A stretch of 64,000 nucleotides of DNA from an uncultured Candidatus Saccharibacteria bacterium (GCA_964446535.1 CAYUOR010000002.1:43372-107371), one strand, 5' to 3'. Shown: positions 1,970 through 55,031, counted from the first letter of the stretch. Numbers and translations are program-made. Notes: generated from the sequence alone by a model not told the origin.

Positions 1970-2545
1970 ATGAGTTATCTTATTCCAACTGTTATTGAGA
2001 AAAGCCAATTCGGTGAAAGAGCTTACGACATATACTCGCGCCTATTGCGTGAAAGAATTGTTTTTTTGGGCGGACCGATTGATGATGCCGTTGCCAATAC
2101 GGTTATTGCCCAACTGCTTTTTCTCGAATCGGAGGATCCCAAAAAAGATATTTCTCTCTACATAAATTCTCCTGGGGGGCACGTTCACTCTGGTCTCGCT
2201 ATTATCGATACTATGAATCATGTAAAACCAGACATCTCAACGCTCTGTGTCGGCATGGCCGCTTCCATGGGTGCCCATATTCTTGCTGCTGGGAAAAAAG
2301 GCAAGCGCTTCACCCTCAGTAACTCACAAATTATGATTCACCAACCCCATGGTGGAGCCGAAGGTCAGGCATCCGACATCGAGATAAACGCGCGACAAAT
2401 TCTCAAACTTCGCGAAAATCTTAATAAAATGCTTGCTAAAAATACTGGGCAACCTCTCTCTAGGATAGAAAAGGATGTTGACAGAGACTTCTTTATGGAT
2501 GCCGAAGAAGCAAAAAAGTACGGCATTATAGACAAGATTCTTTAA
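1970..2545 (+). CDS. clpP: ATP-dependent Clp protease proteolytic subunit ClpP
   Basis: YINSPGG, catalytic Ser context GMAASMG, His context MIHQP, Asp context DRDFFM. Confidence 0.9.
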
Positions 2546-2651: not shown

Positions 2652-4181
2652 ATGTCCGTAAAACTTGCTTTATTGCTTGCATTGCTTGCCGCGTCGGCCG
2701 GTATCGGCTTCGGCTATTTCTTGCGCATTTTAATCTCCTTGGGCCGCAAGGGCTCTATGGAGCTCGACATAAAACAAATGGAGCTTGCCTCAAAGGAAGA
2801 GGCTCAACGCATTTTAGAGGTAGCGGAAACTCGTAGCAAAGAGATTCTAGAGAGGGCTCAAAGAGAATTTAGAGAACGCGAAGACAGAACCAAAAAGATC
2901 GAAGACAGACTGGTTAAAAAAGAGGAAGTTTTAGACAAACGCCAGTCGGATTTAGAACAGGAAGCCCTAAATGCCAAGAAAAAAGCCGCAGAATTAGCGG
3001 AGTTAAAAGTAAAAATAGAACAACTTGTAAAAGAACGCGAACATGAACTCGCGAAGGTGGCAGGATTGTCTCGGGTGGAAGCCAAGAAGGAACTCATGAA
3101 ACTAGTGGAAAAGGAAGCCGAAGAGGATATTCTCATTAGGACCAAAAAACTAGAAGCCGAAAGTAACGAGCGTTTGGAAAATCGTGCCAAGGAAATTCTC
3201 GCCACCGCCATCCAGAGACTCGCCGTCTCGACGGCAAGCAATTTAATGGGTACAACCATTACCCTACCCTCAGACGAGATAAAGGGAAAGATTATCGGTA
3301 AAGAAGGCAGGAATATTAAGGCCTTCGAACGGGCAACTGGCGTTGAAGTAATAGTTGATGACACGCCAAACTCTATCACCCTCTCTTCTTTTGACCCGGT
3401 TCGTCGAGCCATGGCCCGCTTGGCACTAGAAAATCTAATATCAGACGGACGAATTCAGCCTGCAAAAATTGAAGAATTTGTTGAAAAAGCCGACGAAGAA
3501 ATAAATAAAATTATTAAAGAAAAAGGAGAACAGGCAGCCATCGATTGCGGAGTCTACAACCTGGATCCGAAACTTATATCTCTACTTGGACGCCTGCACT
3601 TTCGCACGAGTTACGGTCAGAATGTTTTGGACCACTCTATTGAAATGGCGCACATTGCGGGCATCATAGCCAAGGAACTTGGCGTCGATGTCGCCACGGC
3701 CAAAGCCGGAGCTCTCCTACACGACATAGGCAAGGCGCTTGACCATGAGGTGGCCGGTACACACGTTGAAATCGGTAGAAAAATTTTGGACAAGTTCAAC
3801 GTGCCTAAGGCAGTAATCCAGGCCATGCAGTCACATCACGAAGAATATCCATACGAGACCATAGAATCGGTTATTGTTCAGACCGCGGACACTATTTCCG
3901 CCGGAAGACCAGGTGCTCGTCGCGATACGGCCGAACGCTATCTTAAGCGCCTTGAAGAACTTGAGGCGATAGCTCTTTCCTTCGAAGGAGTCGAGAAAGC
4001 CTATGCCCTATCAGCCGGGCGTGAAATTCGAGTTTTTGTTTTCCCCGACAAAGTTTCAGATCTCGAGGCCCAAAAGCTTGCAAGAAATATTGCCACAAGA
4101 ATCGAAAGTGAGCTTAAATATCCGGGAGAAATCAGGGTGAATGTCATAAGAGAGACCCGCTCCATAGAATTTGCTCGCTAA
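2652..4181 (+). CDS. rny: Ribonuclease Y
   Basis: N-terminal TM helix, coiled-coil, KH domain (GKEGRNIKAFERATG) and HD domain (LLHDIGK). Confidence 0.9.
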   Translation: MSVKLALLLALLAASAGIGFGYFLRILISLGRKGSMELDIKQMELASKEEAQRILEVAETRSKEILERAQREFREREDRTKKIEDRLVKKEEVLDKRQSDLEQEALNAKKKAAELAELKVKIEQLVKEREHELAKVAGLSRVEAKKELMKLVEKEAEEDILIRTKKLEAESNERLENRAKEILATAIQRLAVSTASNLMGTTITLPSDEIKGKIIGKEGRNIKAFERATGVEVIVDDTPNSITLSSFDPVRRAMARLALENLISDGRIQPAKIEEFVEKADEEINKIIKEKGEQAAIDCGVYNLDPKLISLLGRLHFRTSYGQNVLDHSIEMAHIAGIIAKELGVDVATAKAGALLHDIGKALDHEVAGTHVEIGRKILDKFNVPKAVIQAMQSHHEEYPYETIESVIVQTADTISAGRPGARRDTAERYLKRLEELEAIALSFEGVEKAYALSAGREIRVFVFPDKVSDLEAQKLARNIATRIESELKYPGEIRVNVIRETRSIEFAR

Positions 4182-4617: not shown

Positions 4618-6093
4618 TTATTCCACCCGATACTCGTCCCTGATCTTCTCTATCTCTTTTTCTTCTTCGGTTTGGTTTTTAGCACGAGCTTCCTGACCGA
4701 GGCGATCTAATTCTCCGGCTTCAAGGGTGTGTAACTCAAGCACTCTTTTTTCCAAATAAGTTTTATCGTTGAGTTTTGGATTTTCCAGCACTTCCGACAA
4801 AAGAATTTCGAGTATGAAACCGATTTTTGGACCAGGTCCGGAGCTTGTTAGTTTCATAATATCAGCACCATTGATTTGCAATTGTTTGACGGAAATCGGA
4901 TCACGTAAAACTTCTTCAATCATAGATTTATACTTACGTAAGCGGTACGGAGTCTCTTTTGGTCGGCCGGTGCCGACGCGATCCGAGGTGCGTAGACTAA
5001 TCAGGTCCCAAATTAGGTCTTTCCCCACGTTTCTTACTATTCGCCGGACGGCACTGGGTGTTATTTTTTCCGTATCAGAAAAAAACATGTGCCAGCGCAC
5101 AAGCTTAGTGGCCTTATCAACAGTTTCTTTTGGAAATTTCAAATTATCCATAATTTGTCTTGCCATTTTCGCCCCGACAACTTCGTGACCATAGAAGGTC
5201 CACTGATTATTTTTCCAGACCCGCGTATGCGGCTTAGCCACATCGTGAAGTAGGGCCGCCAAGCGAACATGGGGCGGAAAATTTTTCTTAGCGGCATGGT
5301 TAAGGGTGCGTAAAATATGTTCCCAGACGGTATAGGCGTGGGCTTGGTTTTGCTCCATACCTATTCCCTTCTCAAATTCTGGAGAAATAAATTTAAGCAC
5401 CCCAAGGCGGGCCGCCATATCTAGAGCCACCGCCGGCTCTTCAGAAAGAATAATTTTGATAAATTCGTCGCGAATACGTTCTCGCGATACGTGTGACAGG
5501 AGCTCTCTATTTTTAGCAATGGCGTTTTGTGTTTCAAGCTCAATGGCAAAGTTGAGCTCGCTTGCTAGACGAAGCGCTCGGAACATTCTGAGCGCATCTT
5601 CGCCGAAACGCTCTTCGGGCTTGCCTACCGTTCGAATGAGTTTCTTCGTTAGATCTTTCTCTCCACCGAAGGGATCAATCAGTGTTTCAGTTTTAATTTC
5701 ATACGCCATAGCGTTTATAGTAAAGTCGCGCCTAGCCAAATCTTCTTCAATAGTTTTTCCCCATCTGACACTATCTGGTCGACGAAAATCTGAGTAACCG
5801 GACTCGAGCCTAAAGGGAGTTATCTCTATTGTCCTTAGTGTCTCGTCTTGAGTTTCTTCGTTTACTACTCCGACTGTGCCAAACTCGTTTTCATAAAACG
5901 TTTTTGGAAAAATCTTTATGATTTCTTCCGGTGTTGCGCTGGTAGCAAGGTCCCAGTCCTTGGGCGTTCGACCAAGTATCAAGTCTCGAACACAACCGCC
6001 GACAAGAAAGTTCTCAAATCCGGCACGAGAAAGTTCTTCAGAGACCTCTCTTACTTCGTTCGGGATATTAAACAGATGTTTATCTTTCTTCAT
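4618..6093 (-). CDS. cca: CCA-adding tRNA nucleotidyltransferase / poly(A) polymerase family with HD domain
   Basis: polymerase-beta nucleotidyltransferase head GGCVRDLILGRTPKDWDLAT plus a C-terminal HD domain. Confidence 0.85.
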   Translation of the reverse strand: MKKDKHLFNIPNEVREVSEELSRAGFENFLVGGCVRDLILGRTPKDWDLATSATPEEIIKIFPKTFYENEFGTVGVVNEETQDETLRTIEITPFRLESGYSDFRRPDSVRWGKTIEEDLARRDFTINAMAYEIKTETLIDPFGGEKDLTKKLIRTVGKPEERFGEDALRMFRALRLASELNFAIELETQNAIAKNRELLSHVSRERIRDEFIKIILSEEPAVALDMAARLGVLKFISPEFEKGIGMEQNQAHAYTVWEHILRTLNHAAKKNFPPHVRLAALLHDVAKPHTRVWKNNQWTFYGHEVVGAKMARQIMDNLKFPKETVDKATKLVRWHMFFSDTEKITPSAVRRIVRNVGKDLIWDLISLRTSDRVGTGRPKETPYRLRKYKSMIEEVLRDPISVKQLQINGADIMKLTSSGPGPKIGFILEILLSEVLENPKLNDKTYLEKRVLELHTLEAGELDRLGQEARAKNQTEEEKEIEKIRDEYRVE

Positions 6094-6109: not shown

Positions 6110-6184
6110 TGGTGCCCCCAGCAGGAATCGAACCCACATCACCTGTTCCGAAGACAGGCACTTTATCCATTAAGCTATGGGGGC
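6110..6184 (-). tRNA. tRNA-Arg (anticodon TCG)
   Basis: cloverleaf on the minus strand with anticodon stem CCTGT/ACAGG and loop CTTCGGA. The T-loop TTCGATT and a 3' CCA are encoded. The T-stem contains G-U pairs. Confidence 0.6.
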
Positions 6185-6212
6185 TAAAGTAATGTTACAA
6201 GGGATTTTCGAG

Positions 6213-6284
6213 TGCGACTAGGGAGAATCGAACTCCCATCTCGTCCTTGGCAAGGACGCATTCTACCACTAAACCATAGTCGCA
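6213..6284 (-). tRNA. tRNA-Gly (anticodon GCC)
   Basis: D-arm GTTTAGTGGTAGAAT, anticodon loop TTGCCAA, T-loop TTCGATT, acceptor GCGACTA/TAGTCGC. Confidence 0.7.
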
Positions 6285-6354
6285 GGTGAGAAAGATAATA
6301 ACGTATTAGGAGAAAAAAATCGAGATTTTGAAATGACTTTATCGCATGCTAGGA

Positions 6355-6380
6355 TAGACGCTTACGGGCTGTACGAGTAC
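6355..6380 (+). repeat. tRNA acceptor-stem minihelix repeat, copy 1 (CGGGCTG-TACGAGTACAT-CAGCCCGA)
   Basis: the 7-bp stem is identical to the acceptor stems of the downstream tRNA-Pro genes, and the 11-nt loop is near-identical to copy 2. Confidence 0.4.
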
Positions 6381-6391
6381 ATCAGCCCGAT

Positions 6392-6416
6392 CACTCAGAA
6401 TAAAAAGTTATGCCAG
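6392..6416. other. Perfect palindrome AAAAGTTATGC-CA-GCATAACTTTT (possible bidirectional terminator or protein site)
   Basis: 11-bp inverted arms with A-run/T-run flanks, located between the minihelix and tRNA-Pro. Confidence 0.4.
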
Positions 6417-6427
6417 CATAACTTTTG

Positions 6428-6498
6428 TCCTTCGTTACGGGCTGTAGTACAGCGGTAGTATACACGCTTCGGGAGTGTGAGACCCGAGTTCGATTCTC
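6428..6498 (+). tRNA. tRNA-Pro (anticodon CGG)
   Basis: acceptor CGGGCTG/CAGCCCG, anticodon stem CACGC/GTGTG, loop TTCGGGA, T-arm CCGAG-TTCGATT-CTCGG. Confidence 0.75.
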
Positions 6499-6522
6499 GG
6501 CAGCCCGATGCCAAGTTTGGAA

Positions 6523-6593
6523 AAAATCTAGTCGGGCCGTAGTATATCGGTAGTATGCATGCTTTGGGAGCATGAGGGCCGAGTTCGATTCTC
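6523..6593 (+). tRNA. tRNA-Pro (anticodon TGG)
   Basis: acceptor CGGGCCG/CGGCCCG, anticodon stem CATGC/GCATG, loop TTTGGGA. Confidence 0.8.
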
Positions 6594-6605
6594 GGCGGCC
6601 CGAAA

Positions 6606-6631
6606 GAAAAAATGTACGGGCTGTATGAATA
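6606..6631 (+). repeat. tRNA acceptor-stem minihelix repeat, copy 2 (CGGGCTG-TATGAATACAT-CAGCCCGA)
   Basis: same stem as copy 1 and as the tRNA-Pro acceptor stems. Confidence 0.4.
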
Positions 6632-6679
6632 CATCAGCCCGAGCGTTCGGAATGAATATCAAAGCTCGCTTTGCTATTA

Positions 6680-6750
6680 TTCCTCACTACGGGCTGTAGT
6701 ATAACGGTAGTATCTGCCCATGGGGTGGGTAAGGCCCGGGTTCAATTCCC
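6680..6750 (+). tRNA. tRNA-Pro (anticodon GGG)
   Basis: acceptor CGGGCTG/CAGCCCG, anticodon stem TGCCC/GGGTA, loop ATGGGGT, T-arm CCGGG-TTCAATT-CCCGG. Confidence 0.7.
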
Positions 6751-6755
6751 GGCAG

Positions 6756-6826
6756 CCCGAAAGAAGCGGGATTAGTTTAGTGGCAAAACGACAGTTTTCC
6801 AAACTGTAGTTGGGAGTTCGATTCTC
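6756..6826 (+). tRNA. tRNA-Gly (anticodon TCC)
   Basis: acceptor GCGGGAT/ATCCCGC, anticodon stem ACAGT/ACTGT, loop TTTCCAA, T-loop TTCGATT. Confidence 0.8.
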
Positions 6827-6846
6827 CCATCCCGCACTTTTTCCCT

Positions 6847-50233: not shown

Positions 50234-50365
50234 TCAGATCTCGAACTCGCGCCGAATGATCGTCTGGGTGTCGACCCTGATGAAACCTTCGTTGTCATCG
50301 GGCAGGCCGGCGACGAGGCCCTGCTTCTCGATGATCTTGGTCGGATCTTTCCAGCCGTATTTCAT
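50234..50365 (-). CDS. Small protein, 44 aa (MKYGWKDPTKIIEKQGLVAGLPDDNEGFIRVDTQTIIRREFEI), hypothetical
   Basis: perfect Shine-Dalgarno AAAGGAGGT 7 nt upstream of the ATG; GC-rich codon usage; lies immediately 3' of ssrA. Confidence 0.4.
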   Translation of the reverse strand: MKYGWKDPTKIIEKQGLVAGLPDDNEGFIRVDTQTIIRREFEI

Positions 50366-50433
50366 GTGACCTCCTTTCGTGTGCCTATTCTTATTATAAC
50401 TAAAAACCACTCGGGAAGAGTAGTTTTTATTAT

Positions 50434-50852
50434 TGGTGGAGGTGGCGGGAATGAGCCCGCGTCCAAGGAAATGTCTCCGACGAATCTAGCACGCCTAGAC
50501 CGATTTTTCCGCCTTACGGCGAATCTCGATTCTCAAACTATAAATCGGACAAAACATTTGAGATTCAAAGCTCTTTAGTTTGGCGCCGAGAGGAGCACTC
50601 TCTGCGTTACAATCCGACAGATAAGCACCTGAGATCTCGTATCGGATGGCGAGATAACAGGCGTTCGCTTAGGCGAGCTTACGCTCGAGCGTAGGCGAAA
50701 GCAAAGTCGTTTGCCGTAAAGTACGGCGAAACAATAGACTTTGCCCGTGCGACGATATTGTCAGCACTTAAATTTTCCAAGGGTTTAAGGAGTTCTTGGA
50801 GCTCCGCGTGCCACGGCGGGGAACTGGTTTCCATGTCGAAACTGGCACCCCC
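50434..50852 (-). ncRNA. ssrA: tmRNA (SsrA)
   Basis: 5' end GGGGGUGCCAGUUUCGACAUGG matches the tmRNA consensus GGGGCUGAUUCUGGAUUCGAC. The 3' end GGACGCGGGCUCAUUCCCGCCACCUCCACCA matches the tRNA-like T-arm/acceptor GGACGGGGGUUCAAAUCCCCCCAGCUCCACCA. There is an internal tag ORF GCA AAC GAC UUU GCU UUC GCC UAC GCU CGA GCG UAA. smpB lies immediately upstream. Confidence 0.85.
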
Positions 50853-50863
50853 GTATTTAAATC

Positions 50864-51301
50864 TTACAACGTTCTCTTCAGGTCTCTCTCGATGTCGCGT
50901 TTTTTTATTGTCTGGCGTTTGTCTATTTTCTTCTTGCCACGCGCAATTGCGATATCAAGCTTTAGAAACCTACCCTTATTATACACCGAAAGAGGCACTA
51001 TTGTCAATCCTTTAGTATTTTCCGCCTCGGCAAGCCTCTCTAATTCTTTTCCTGAAAGCAAAACTTTTCTCACCCGCTTGGCGTCATAGTCTTTCGGAGC
51101 ATTTTTCGGCTGATAGGCCGGGAGATCGGCACCCAGAAGATATGCCTCACCCCCTCGCACCGTTACGTAAGCGCCCTGAAGGTTGAGTTTGCCCGATCGG
51201 ACAGCCTTCACCTCCGTACCAAGGAGCTCCAAACCTGCCGAAAATTTTTCAAGTATTTCGTAATCAAAGCGGGCTTTTCTGTTGTCGGCAAACTGTGTCA
51301 T
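50864..51301 (-). CDS. smpB: SsrA-binding protein SmpB
   Basis: NRKARFDYEILEKFSAGLELLGTEVKAVR...GKKKIDKRQTIKKRD; the true start is the internal Met MTQFADN, and the ORF-track N-terminal extension is spurious. Confidence 0.9.
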   Translation of the reverse strand: MTQFADNRKARFDYEILEKFSAGLELLGTEVKAVRSGKLNLQGAYVTVRGGEAYLLGADLPAYQPKNAPKDYDAKRVRKVLLSGKELERLAEAENTKGLTIVPLSVYNKGRFLKLDIAIARGKKKIDKRQTIKKRDIERDLKRTL

Positions 51302-51379: not shown

Positions 51380-53311
51380 ATGAACGAACCCTCGAAACAT
51401 AAGAAGAAAATAATTATCACGAAGCCGAAGGGTCCAGGCGGCCTGCCGCCAGGCCGCGGTCTTATCGTCCAGCTTCTTCTGACCTTCCTTATTTTCTTCA
51501 CCCTCGTTAGCCTCTACTCGTCTATCACGAATAAAGATGCGGCAACAGAGGAAATACCGCTCTCGGTCCTGGCCCAAGAGATCAAGGATGGCAACATCTC
51601 CGAGATCAGAGTTGTTGGCGACAGACTCGACCTTACATTTGCCGACGGCACGAAAAAGATTTCAAAGAAGGAAGCATCAACCGCTCTCACCACCACTCTA
51701 AAAAATTATACGGTCTCCGAAGAGGCGCTTGCCAAAATAAATATTGAAGTAAAAAGCGACAGGGGGTTTCTCTATTGGTTTGCATCTCTCGCGCCGATAC
51801 TTCTTCCCATAGCATTTATCATCTTTTTCATCTGGTTTCTCTCGCGCCAGGTCAAGGGCGCGGGGATGCAGGCCTTCACCTTCGGTCAGTCTAAGGCCAG
51901 GATGACGCGCCCCGACGACAAGAGCCAGAAGGTGACATTTAGAGATGTGGCTGGCTGCAAAGAGGCGAAGGAGGAGCTTAAAGAGATTGTGGACTTTCTA
52001 AAAAATCCGAAAAAGTTCTTGGACATCGGCGCGAGGATTCCGAAGGGCATTCTCTTGATGGGTGCGCCAGGGACAGGCAAGACTCTTCTTGCTCGCGCGG
52101 TAGCGGGAGAGGCGGGAGTTTCGTTTTTCTCAATATCGGGATCGGAATTTGTCGAGATGTTTGTCGGTGTCGGCGCCTCGCGTGTTCGCGACCTCTTTGA
52201 CCTGGCGAAGAAGGCGGCCCCAGCCATTATCTTTGTTGACGAGATAGATGCGGTCGGACGAGTGCGCGGGACGGGAGTCGGCGGCGGGAATGACGAGCGC
52301 GAGCAAACTCTGAATCAGATCTTGGTGGAGCTCGACGGCTTCGAGCCGAATGAAAAGGTTATCGTTATGGCAGCGACGAATCGACCCGACGTCCTTGATC
52401 CGGCCCTCCTTCGCCCGGGGCGCTTCGACCGACGGGTGACACTCGACCTTCCCGACAGGAAAGATCGTGAAGAAATTCTCCTTATCCACGCCAGGAAAAA
52501 GCCATTCGCCGAGGATGTAAACCTACCACTCATAGCCGAGCGTACCCCCGGCTTTTCCGGTGCCGATCTCTACTCCCTTATGAACGAAGCGGCGATACTC
52601 GCCGCGCGGGAGAATAGGACGAAAGTATCGCAATACGATCTTATCCGCTCTATTGAGAAGGTGATGCTCGGCCCGGAACGCAGAAGCCACATCCTTTCAA
52701 AGAAGGAGAAAGAGCTCACGGCTTATCACGAAGCGGGGCACGCCGTGGTCGCATCCGTTCTGCCTTATGCCGATCCTGTGCATAAGATTTCTATAATTTC
52801 TCGCGGTCGCGCGGCAGGTTATACCCTGAAACTTCCTCTGGAAGACAGAAAGCTGCAGTCAAAGAAAGAATTTCTCGACGACATCGCGACAGCTCTCGGC
52901 GGCTACGTCGTGGAGAAAACTATTTTCCGCGACATCACGACGGGACCCTCAAACGACCTTCAGGTCGCAACAGCGCGAGCTCGCGACATGGTGACGAAGT
53001 TCGGCATGTCGGAGAAGATGGGTCCTGTAGCGCTCGAGGGTCCTGGCGGCAAACCACTATTCGGCGTCGGGGTAAGCGACAAAGATTACTCGGAGAAGGT
53101 CGGAGCGATGATAGATGCCGAAGTCTCTCTCATCATGAATGACGCGATGAGAAAGGTGGAGAAAATCATCAAGGATCACAGAAAAGCGCTTGACGCTATC
53201 GCCGGACGCTTGATAGAGACCGAGACAATAGAGCAAAAAGAGTTTGAAGAAATTTTGATAGCAAACGGTATTACGCCAAAGAAGAAAAAAGATATAGAAC
53301 ACCAAGCATAA
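51380..53311 (+). CDS. ftsH: ATP-dependent zinc metalloprotease FtsH
   Basis: AAA Walker [18 protein letters not shown] zinc motif; two N-terminal TM helices. Confidence 0.9.
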
Positions 53312-54876: not shown

Positions 54877-54957
54877 AAAGACCTCCTTTTTGAGCTGAAA
54901 AAGTCTCCTGCAACTATACTATTTTAATCCCACAAAGTCAAGAGATATGAAAACTAG

Positions 54958-55031
54958 TCCGCCCGCCACGATTCGAACGTGGGACCCCCGAGGTATAAGC
55001 TCGATGCTCTAACCAGCTGAGCTACGGGCGG
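54958..55031 (-). tRNA. tRNA-Ile with anticodon TAT (UAU), C1-G72 acceptor pair
   Basis: D-arm GCTCAGCTGGTTAGAGC (Ile/Ala/Met type), anticodon stem TCGAG/CTCGG, loop CTTATAC, T-arm CCACG-TTCGAAT-CGTGG, acceptor CCGCCCG/CGGGCGG. Confidence 0.65.

Follow-up and report, generated by a model that had tools for sequence, protein, structure and literature searches.

A one-piece tmRNA with a predicted 28-residue tag encoded directly downstream of smpB in a Parcubacteria-type genome

Introduction

Is the transfer-messenger RNA (tmRNA, ssrA) gene on the minus strand of CAYUOR010000002.1:43372-107371 functional, and which peptide tag does it encode? The window, by which we mean the whole stretch of 64,000 nucleotides analyzed here, was described in an earlier note as carrying at positions 50434-50852 a tmRNA with an 11-residue tag, ANDFAFAYARA, an assignment that raises the question of where translation resumes on this molecule. 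Our comparison with related loci indicates, with a probability of roughly 0.88, that the gene belongs to a bacterium of the Parcubacteria/Zambryskibacteria type and yields a functional one-piece tmRNA (SsrA), with its partner SmpB encoded just upstream, and, at the same level, that the predicted tag comprises 28 residues, ADNIVARAKSIVSPYFTANDFAFAYARA (not counting the alanine that the tmRNA carries), encoded at 50765-50682 and followed by the stop codon UAA at 50681-50679.

Results

Identity of the gene and its partner smpB

Using cmscan, the Rfam model RF00023 matched the minus strand at 50852-50434 with 96.1 bits (gathering score 47, E = 3e-36) and over its full length (model positions 1-374 of 374). 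This is the sole RF00023 match, and no second tmRNA is therefore found among the matches in the window. The boundaries coincide exactly with those of the earlier note, which had suggested this search as a check, and the score lies well above the gathering score. The gene is 419 nucleotides (nt) long, one-piece and ends with an encoded 3' CCA; its minus strand starts with GGGGGUGCCAGUUUCGACAUGG at the 5' end and closes with GGACGCGGGCUCAUUCCCGCCACCUCCACCA at the 3' end. The predicted fold of the whole tmRNA exceeds 100 of 100 shuffled sequences in stability (z = -5.5), and RNAalifold, applied to the 18 members of the subclade of this gene, predicts 79 pairs, of which 47 show compensatory changes. 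That 50434-50852 is a tmRNA can be regarded as practically certain, and it is an ordinary one, a further member of a known family. The 70-amino-acid open reading frame (ORF) that had been noticed to overlap the region was found on the plus strand at 50366-50578.

A gap of 11 nt separates the end of the SmpB gene (50864-51301, minus strand, 145 amino acids, Pfam SmpB 164 bits) from the 5' end of the tmRNA, and the position directly downstream of smpB was thus described correctly. SmpB's C-terminal tail is intact, including D127-K128-R129, and the invariant columns of the protein are retained. As its closest matches are found in metagenome-assembled genomes (MAGs) of Zambryskibacteria, Parcubacteria and Patescibacteria with 70-83% identity, the host belongs to the candidate phyla radiation (CPR)/Patescibacteria, in agreement with the affiliation assumed before.

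Position of the resume codon and extent of the tag frame

For a comparative analysis, 80 loci anchored on SmpB relatives were fetched from the genome collection, and 65 tmRNAs were extracted just downstream of smpB; together with the window they form an aligned set of 66 sequences from Parcubacteria-type genomes, to which all counts per 66 refer. Earlier extractions by regular expressions were too strict, as they demanded an encoded CCA or a UUCGAC-type D-loop, and yielded 8 and then 19 of 81 loci; the relaxed extraction recovered 66 of 81, and several of the 15 loci left out are truncated. The region from pseudoknot 1 (PK1) to helix 5 was aligned with MAFFT, and the end of PK1 was located by alignment columns, since automatic detection sometimes took stem 1.

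The column of the resume codon lies 10-11 nt after PK1 (10 nt in the window) and contains GCA in 61, GCU in three and GUA in two sequences. In the window this is the GCU at 50763-50765 (minus strand, tmRNA nt 88-90), a position indicated by the alignment, by cmscan and by ARAGORN after repair of the T-loop or the D-loop. The covariance model aligns its consensus UGCaAAC to UGCUGAC at 50766-50760 and treats the stretch down to the GCA of the earlier note as an insertion. In front of the codon, all 66 sequences carry A at -4 and have a pyrimidine at -5, while A at -3 and U at -1 are found in 63 each. The putative frame-setting nucleotides U(-5) and A(-4) of the window (50769-50770, minus strand) are equivalent to U85/A86 of E. 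coli, which set the reading frame there, the E. coli resume codon being located 12 nt after PK1 (PMC2481249).

The frame that begins at this column is open in all 66 sequences, spans 28 codons in the window (50682-50765, minus strand) and always ends at the same UAA, which is positioned at 50679-50681 in the window and which the fold places in the GUAA loop of helix 5. Tags of 21, 23, 24, 25, 26, 27, 28 and 29 codons occur (eight classes), and because each of these lengths stays in frame to the same stop codon, all length changes comprise whole codons. Across the whole frame no sequence contains an in-frame stop, whereas stops interrupt the +1 frame in 33 and the +2 frame in 50 of the 66 sequences, and the respective numbers for the part upstream of the start in the earlier note are 0, 19 and 23. 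When this upstream part is compared between pairs of sequences, the differences at the first, second and third codon position amount to 309, 310 and 701 in the 28-codon class, to 141, 143 and 260 in the 25-codon class and to 101, 111 and 233 in the 29-codon class, with a weaker third-position excess in the 24-codon class (1023, 903 and 1309). A like pattern (132, 322 and 533) is found in the downstream part, which would be coding under either start. The serine codon of a conserved SPYF motif is TCN in 63 sequences and AGT in one, and ARAGORN reported homologous tags of 24-29 residues in about 30 relatives, e.g., ADSIVSRVKSTVSPYFTAKDFAFAYVRA in L001.

The resume codon has to be moved 17 codons upstream of the GCA at 50714, in the same frame. 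The string GCA AAC GAC UUU GCU UUC GCC UAC GCU CGA GCG UAA is present at 50714-50679 as had been claimed, and both its stop codon and its -YARA C-terminus are kept, so that ANDFAFAYARA survives as the C-terminal 11 of 28 residues and only its start is lost. Another resume codon giving a conventional tag had been foreseen as an outcome that would speak against the original proposal, and this came true by half: the resume codon differs, and the tag is no conventional short one. A length of 28 residues falls inside the known range of 8-35 (PMC8012679).

Two other starts in the same frame have to be weighed. Resumption at another in-frame alanine codon such as the GCA of codon 6 (50750-50748), which would yield the 23 residues ARAKSIVSPYFTANDFAFAYARA, leaves the downstream frame and the C-terminus unaffected, and ARAGORN selected the equivalent of this codon in L022. 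However, the segment around codon 6 varies in length or is deleted in the 24- and 25-codon classes and its position is not conserved, it has neither the conserved U-A context nor the fixed spacing to PK1, and ARAGORN starts at the first GCU when given the window sequence after repair, as it does at the first codon in most relatives. We therefore consider a start of this kind very unlikely. Still more improbable is resumption at GCA 50714-50712, with the 51 nt from PK1 to this codon as an untranslated structured spacer. The resulting ANDFAFAYARA does resemble classical short tags, e.g., ANDENYALAA, and the intervening stretch forms conserved hairpins with some covariation, so that RNA constraint could explain part of the conservation. 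Against this, the codon at that position is GCN in only 38 of the 66 sequences, AUG in 19 and one of AGA, GAG, GUG, AAU, AAC, GGG or ACC in nine; the nucleotide at -4 is U or C and never the required A; the distance to PK1 would be 61 nt, compared with 10-11 nt in the clade and 12 nt in E. coli; and the codon is buried within a long hairpin (Hb, see below). Furthermore, the stretch that would be the spacer is free of in-frame stops in 66 of 66 sequences, contains triplet indels only and displays a third-position excess. The start at GCU 50763-50765 remains the reading on which the following sections build.

The C-terminal -ARA ending

The last three residues of the predicted tags are ARA in 23, VRA in 13, ARV in seven, VRV in four and IRA in one of the 66 sequences, and the Nomurabacteria-type tags end with AYA, AFA, ALA or ASA instead. 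The final residue is A in 55 and V in 11 sequences, and R is the penultimate residue in 48. The -ARA ending, which had been pointed out as unusual, is thus real, but it is no peculiarity of this genome and rather the norm in the clade. As judged from the predicted tags, the terminal residue is the usual small hydrophobic one and the unusual feature is the adjacent arginine. A charged final residue has been reported only for Carsonella (Hudson et al., PMC4131195).

RNA structure around and within the tag frame

PK1 (50776-50805, minus strand) is composed of stem S1 GGAG/CUCC and stem S2 UCCAAG/CUUGGA, which are paired in 100% and 92%, respectively. It is strongly supported by compensatory changes at five of the six S2 pairs and at six of ten pairs overall. 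A hand-drawn structure was scored on 19 sequences with 28-codon tags, which revealed that 89.7% of the cells are paired in comparison to 37-47% after sliding the 3' partners; 14 pairs are changed on both sides, and none of 500 shuffles matches the structure on four of five measures.

Downstream of the frame-setting nucleotides, hairpin Ha (GUGC(U)GAC...GUCGCAC, 50747-50767, minus strand, 97% paired) holds positions -2 and -1 together with the resume codon. Two of its pairs are compensated, G-C to A-U and C-G to U-A, and one of these changes matches the GUA resume codon by a G to A exchange on the opposite strand. Codons 7-22 form hairpin Hb (50699-50746, minus strand), which is present in the minimum free energy (MFE) fold, is backed by covariation and has the outer stem GGGCAAAGUC/GACUUUGCUU (94% paired, three pairs changed on both sides) and the inner stem GUUU-GCCGUA/UACGGC-AAAC (88% paired). 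The tip of Hb encodes SPYF. Relatives with SPYFGM instead of SPYFTA have rebuilt the tip hairpin as CAUAC-UUCG-GUAUG, which argues that coding capacity and RNA structure jointly constrain this part of the molecule. Helix 5 around the stop codon (CGCU-CGAGC GUAA GCUCG-CCUA-AGCG, 50666-50691, minus strand) is found in the MFE fold and is more weakly supported, with 72-76% pairing in a gappy alignment.

Over all 66 sequences, a mean of 68% of the frame nucleotides is paired in the MFE folds and 62 sequences have z below -2, with the U-A at -5/-4 left unpaired in 50 of 66 folds. A conserved helix at the resume codon, as predicted by these models, would be a notable difference from E. coli. In the Nomurabacteria-type sequences L050, L055, L057 and L065-L074, the resume codon is located in the GCAA tetraloop of a UAAUU/AAUUA stem. 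This stem would pair the -5/-4 nucleotides, so that the resume codon would be presented otherwise than in the clade of the window.

Three further strongly covarying stems were detected at the places expected for PK2-PK4 (alignment columns 212-249, 255-277 and 295-333), and cmscan aligns these stems to RF00023 as well; the result refers to one stem each. In the same 3' pseudoknot region, the window and L007, L017 and L028 share a 13-nt insertion (50510-50521, minus strand, in the window) that is absent from the other 14 members of the subclade and forms an extra small hairpin (CGCC-GUAA-GGCG in the window).

The tRNA-like domain, its variant elbow and the missing ARAGORN call

The 5' strand of the acceptor stem, GGGGGUG (50846-50852, minus strand), pairs with CACCUCC (50444-50438) with one G-U included, just as the two halves had been described; seven of seven positions are paired, and the G-U is located at position 3. 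The discriminator A (50437) and CCA (50436-50434) complete the 3' strand (50434-50444, minus strand). G3-U is the classical alanine identity pair. It is present in 18 of 18 subclade members of the RNAalifold set, in which the acceptor pairs are either invariant or covarying. A 3' CCA is encoded by 26 of the 66 clade tmRNAs and is absent from the other 40.

The T-arm (50445-50460, minus strand) has a 5-bp stem, GCGGG/CCCGC, and a loop of six instead of the usual seven nucleotides (CUCAUU, 50455-50450), which cmscan displays as a loop deletion. Compensatory changes affect three of the five stem pairs, and the stem occurs within the subclade as GCGGG/CCCGC, GGGAG/CUCCC, AGGAG/CUCCU and AUGGG/CCCAU. 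As the loop keeps its length in 18 of 18 members while the stem covaries, a sequencing error does not account for it. The D-loop analogue of the window (50834-50845, minus strand region) reads CCAGUUUC and contains a single G instead of GG. Both features are coupled: the 6-nt T-loop (CUCAUU or UUCAAU) is combined with an 8-nt, one-nt-shorter GG-less D-loop in 18 of 18 and the GG D-loop with a 7-nt T-loop in 47 of 47 sequences, with one exception among the 66. Besides the window, the short loop is found in L003, L007, L009-L012, L014, L017, L018, L021-L023, L028, L034, L035, L037 and L038. A search for co-evolution of SmpB with the 6-nt T-loop yielded no alignment column by which the 17 genomes with a six-nt loop could be told apart from the 32 with a seven-nt loop. 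The window gene thus lacks the usual 7-nt T-loop (UUCGAUU-like) with a GG elbow, which is typical of tmRNAs and not defining. Since all other features hold and the variant is conserved with covariation, we take the elbow for a clade variant that does not exclude the gene from the tmRNAs.

ARAGORN, the second check proposed for this locus, called no tmRNA in the whole window or in 50300-51000, which we count as a miss of the detector and not as contrary evidence. Any one of four repairs, namely the T-loops UUCGAUU, CUCGAUU or UUCAUU or a GG D-loop, restores the call together with the 28-residue tag, and the miss is an effect of the scoring threshold; addition of one A to the T-loop (CUCAAUU) did not restore it. 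The program missed 17 of the 18 six-nt-loop members, including the window, and left 43 of the 80 SmpB-anchored loci without a tmRNA call, 17 of these 43 having the 6-nt T-loop. The 6-nt T-loop, the GG-less D-loop and the missing call might suggest that this ssrA copy is decaying or has lost its function. We consider this extremely improbable, as the variant tRNA-like domain recurs in 18 independent MAGs with a covarying T-stem and compensatory changes throughout the molecule, as neither G3-U, CCA and PK1 nor the frame-setting nucleotides and the tag frame show any damage, as the SmpB partner is likewise intact and the window yielded no second tmRNA, and as a single base change undoes the ARAGORN miss.

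Promoter, terminator and proposed mechanism

The 3' part of smpB harbours a consensus sigma-70-type promoter, TTGACA-18 nt-TATAAT (50978-51007, minus strand), which precedes the 5' end of the tmRNA by about 125 nt and matches the consensus at 12 of 12 positions. The element spans the SmpB residues L-T ... Y-N, and its constituent codons hardly vary among 53 relatives (Leu TTG 53/53, Thr ACA 52/53, Val GTG 49/49, Tyr TAT 50/53, Asn AAT 49/49). The adjacent Gly, Pro and Ile codons vary freely with all synonyms in use. Because the promoter-building codons are frozen at synonymous sites while their neighbours are free, the promoter within smpB probably serves ssrA, and the synonymous sites of smpB would then provide a clean case of overlapping coding and regulatory constraint.

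At the other end, a terminator-like hairpin followed by a U run (50396-50433, minus strand) begins directly after CCA. With a free energy of -13.7 kcal/mol it was equalled in stability by none of 200 shuffles (z = -5.85). A simple terminator scan did not list this hairpin, and its support comes from folding. Just past it, a small ORF of about 43 amino acids (MKYGWKDPTK...) was noticed at 50234-50365 (minus strand). It had been called as 58 amino acids at 50234-50410, and the ATG at 50365 behind the strong ribosome-binding site AAAGGAGG is the likely start; no Pfam match was obtained for the ORF as called and no homologue in the 80 related loci.

According to these signals, transcription of ssrA would start from the promoter within the 3' end of smpB; RNase P would presumably cleave the leader off at G50852, and the transcript would end at the hairpin right after CCA. 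The remaining steps are expected from the established trans-translation pathway: the tmRNA would be charged by alanyl-tRNA synthetase and delivered by SmpB and EF-Tu to ribosomes that have stalled on broken mRNA, Ala-tmRNA would take over the nascent chain, and translation would resume at GCU to append (A)ADNIVARAKSIVSPYFTANDFAFAYARA, after which the tagged protein would be degraded.

Candidate proteases and neighbouring genes

Divergent from smpB-ssrA, the window encodes FtsH (51380-53311, plus strand, with the HEAGH motif). A match to ftsH was found in 74 of the 80 SmpB-anchored loci and is upstream and divergent in 66 of them (Zambryskibacteria, Nomurabacteria and Paceibacteria-type MAGs). 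At a distance of 48 kb, clpP (1970-2545, plus strand) was identified by Pfam CLP_protease with 282.5 bits and by the active-site motif GMAASMG, and the presence of this gene indicates that the organism keeps a Clp protease core. No lon was detected in the 64-kb window, neither by a motif scan nor in the Pfam-scanned ORFs. Similarly, no clpX was found in the window or beside clpP, which says little about the genome, as this search was confined to the window. Candidate proteases for the tag would be a Clp unfoldase with ClpP and FtsH, for which the conserved synteny is suggestive. A takeover by Lon after loss of ClpXP, as in mycoplasmas, was considered as the cause of the long tag and rejected, because clpP is present at 1970-2545. 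A literature search for tmRNA tags or tag proteases of CPR/Parcubacteria returned nothing specific.

The clpP gene is grouped with genes for RNase Y and a CCA-adding-type nucleotidyltransferase (2652-4181, plus strand, and 4618-6093, minus strand). The latter enzyme is relevant here since the CCA is missing from the gene in 40 of the 66 tmRNAs of the clade. Beyond this group, six tRNA genes on both strands (Arg-UCG, Gly-GCC, Pro-CGG, Pro-UGG, Pro-GGG and Gly-UCC) are clustered at 6110-6837, with all three Pro isoacceptors among them. At 54957-55031 (minus strand), a tRNA-Ile with the anticodon UAU was found by ARAGORN and by the Rfam tRNA model (64 bits). As AUA is decoded in most bacteria by a CAU tRNA that carries lysidine, a UAU isoacceptor would be uncommon.

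Discussion

Several observations weigh against a functional tmRNA with a 28-residue tag. In the window, pairing is predicted for the resume codon and for 76% of the nucleotides of the tag frame, and for an E. coli mutant tmRNA it has been proposed that a helix around this codon causes inactivation (PMC2481249). The conservation of SPYF-T/G-A/M partly overlaps a conserved RNA hairpin and for this reason does not count as independent coding evidence. The frame contains further GCN codons, among them the codon 6 that ARAGORN took in L022, and the 6-nt T-loop with the GG-less D-loop leaves the window gene without an ARAGORN call. Moreover, the counts over 66 tmRNAs come from kin sequences and do not represent 66 independent trials, and the argument as a whole is drawn from sequence and its comparison. 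If the 28-residue tag is true, peptides ending with ...AADNIVAR or containing AKSIVSPYFTANDFAFAYAR would be diagnostic.

The importance of this locus is mainly one of annotation: Rfam finds the gene easily, ARAGORN misses it and a naive reading yields the wrong tag. Our results leave the understanding of the role of tmRNA unchanged. Side results of modest interest are the altered elbow, the extensive structure of the tag frame and the promoter within smpB. The paired shortening of T-loop and D-loop can be seen as a natural experiment on the requirements of the tmRNA elbow. The predicted 28-residue tag family (SPYF...DF.FAY[AV]R[AV]) would offer a concrete and testable degron in a lineage that is not culturable alone.

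It is tempting, and in our opinion rather doubtful, to regard the Parcubacteria-type tmRNAs as a distinct functional subclass that is characterized by a hairpin-locked frame of 21-29 codons, a paired resume codon, SPYF...DF.FA with a penultimate Arg and, in one sublineage to which the window belongs, an elbow rebuilt by shortening T-loop and D-loop by one nucleotide each. If these features matter, tags would be recognized by determinants other than the ClpX/SspB rules of E. coli, the reader possibly being the FtsH neighbour or a co-adapted Clp unfoldase, and for translation to resume, a helix regarded as inhibitory in E. coli would have to be unwound.

Comparison with known systems

In comparison to SsrA of E. 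coli and the RF00023 family, the window gene retains the G3-U acceptor, the discriminator A, CCA, the T-arm, P2 and PK1. It also shares with E. coli the U-A at -5/-4, an alanine resume codon about 10 nt after PK1 (nt 88 here, nt 90 in E. coli), the UAA in the loop of helix 5, a hydrophobic terminal residue, an SmpB with the DKR tail motif and three further covarying stems at the places of PK2-PK4. In contrast, the predicted tag comprises 28 instead of 10 residues and ends with -YARA, with its penultimate arginine, instead of -ALAA, conserved hairpins take up the resume codon together with most of the frame, the T-loop has six nucleotides and the D-loop a single G instead of GG, and ssrA abuts smpB at a distance of 11 nt with its putative promoter inside that gene.

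The tags of Mycoplasma and Mesoplasma come closest in length. According to PMC8403727, which cites Gur and Sauer 2008, they comprise 27 residues (27 in M. pneumoniae), end with -FAFA and are degraded by Lon, mycoplasmas being described there as without ClpXP. A reduced genome, a long tag (27 residues there and 28 here) and an aromatic/Ala-rich C-terminus (...NFAFA and ...DFAFAYARA) are common to both groups, whereas ClpP is encoded here and the tags have no sequence homology beyond their composition.

The nearest counterparts are the 65 sister tmRNAs from Zambryskibacteria, Nomurabacteria and Paceibacteria MAGs (e.g., L023, L018 and L011), which share the architecture, the order ftsH / smpB-ssrA, the promoter in smpB and the tag family A-[DKN]-...-SPYF-[TG]-[AM]-x-DF-x-FA-[YF]-[AV]-R-[AV]. 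They differ in a tag of 21-29 residues, in the canonical 7-nt T-loop with GG D-loop that is found in 47 of 66 sequences and, in the Nomurabacteria type, in tags that end with -SA[FYLS]A and not with -[AV]R[AV].

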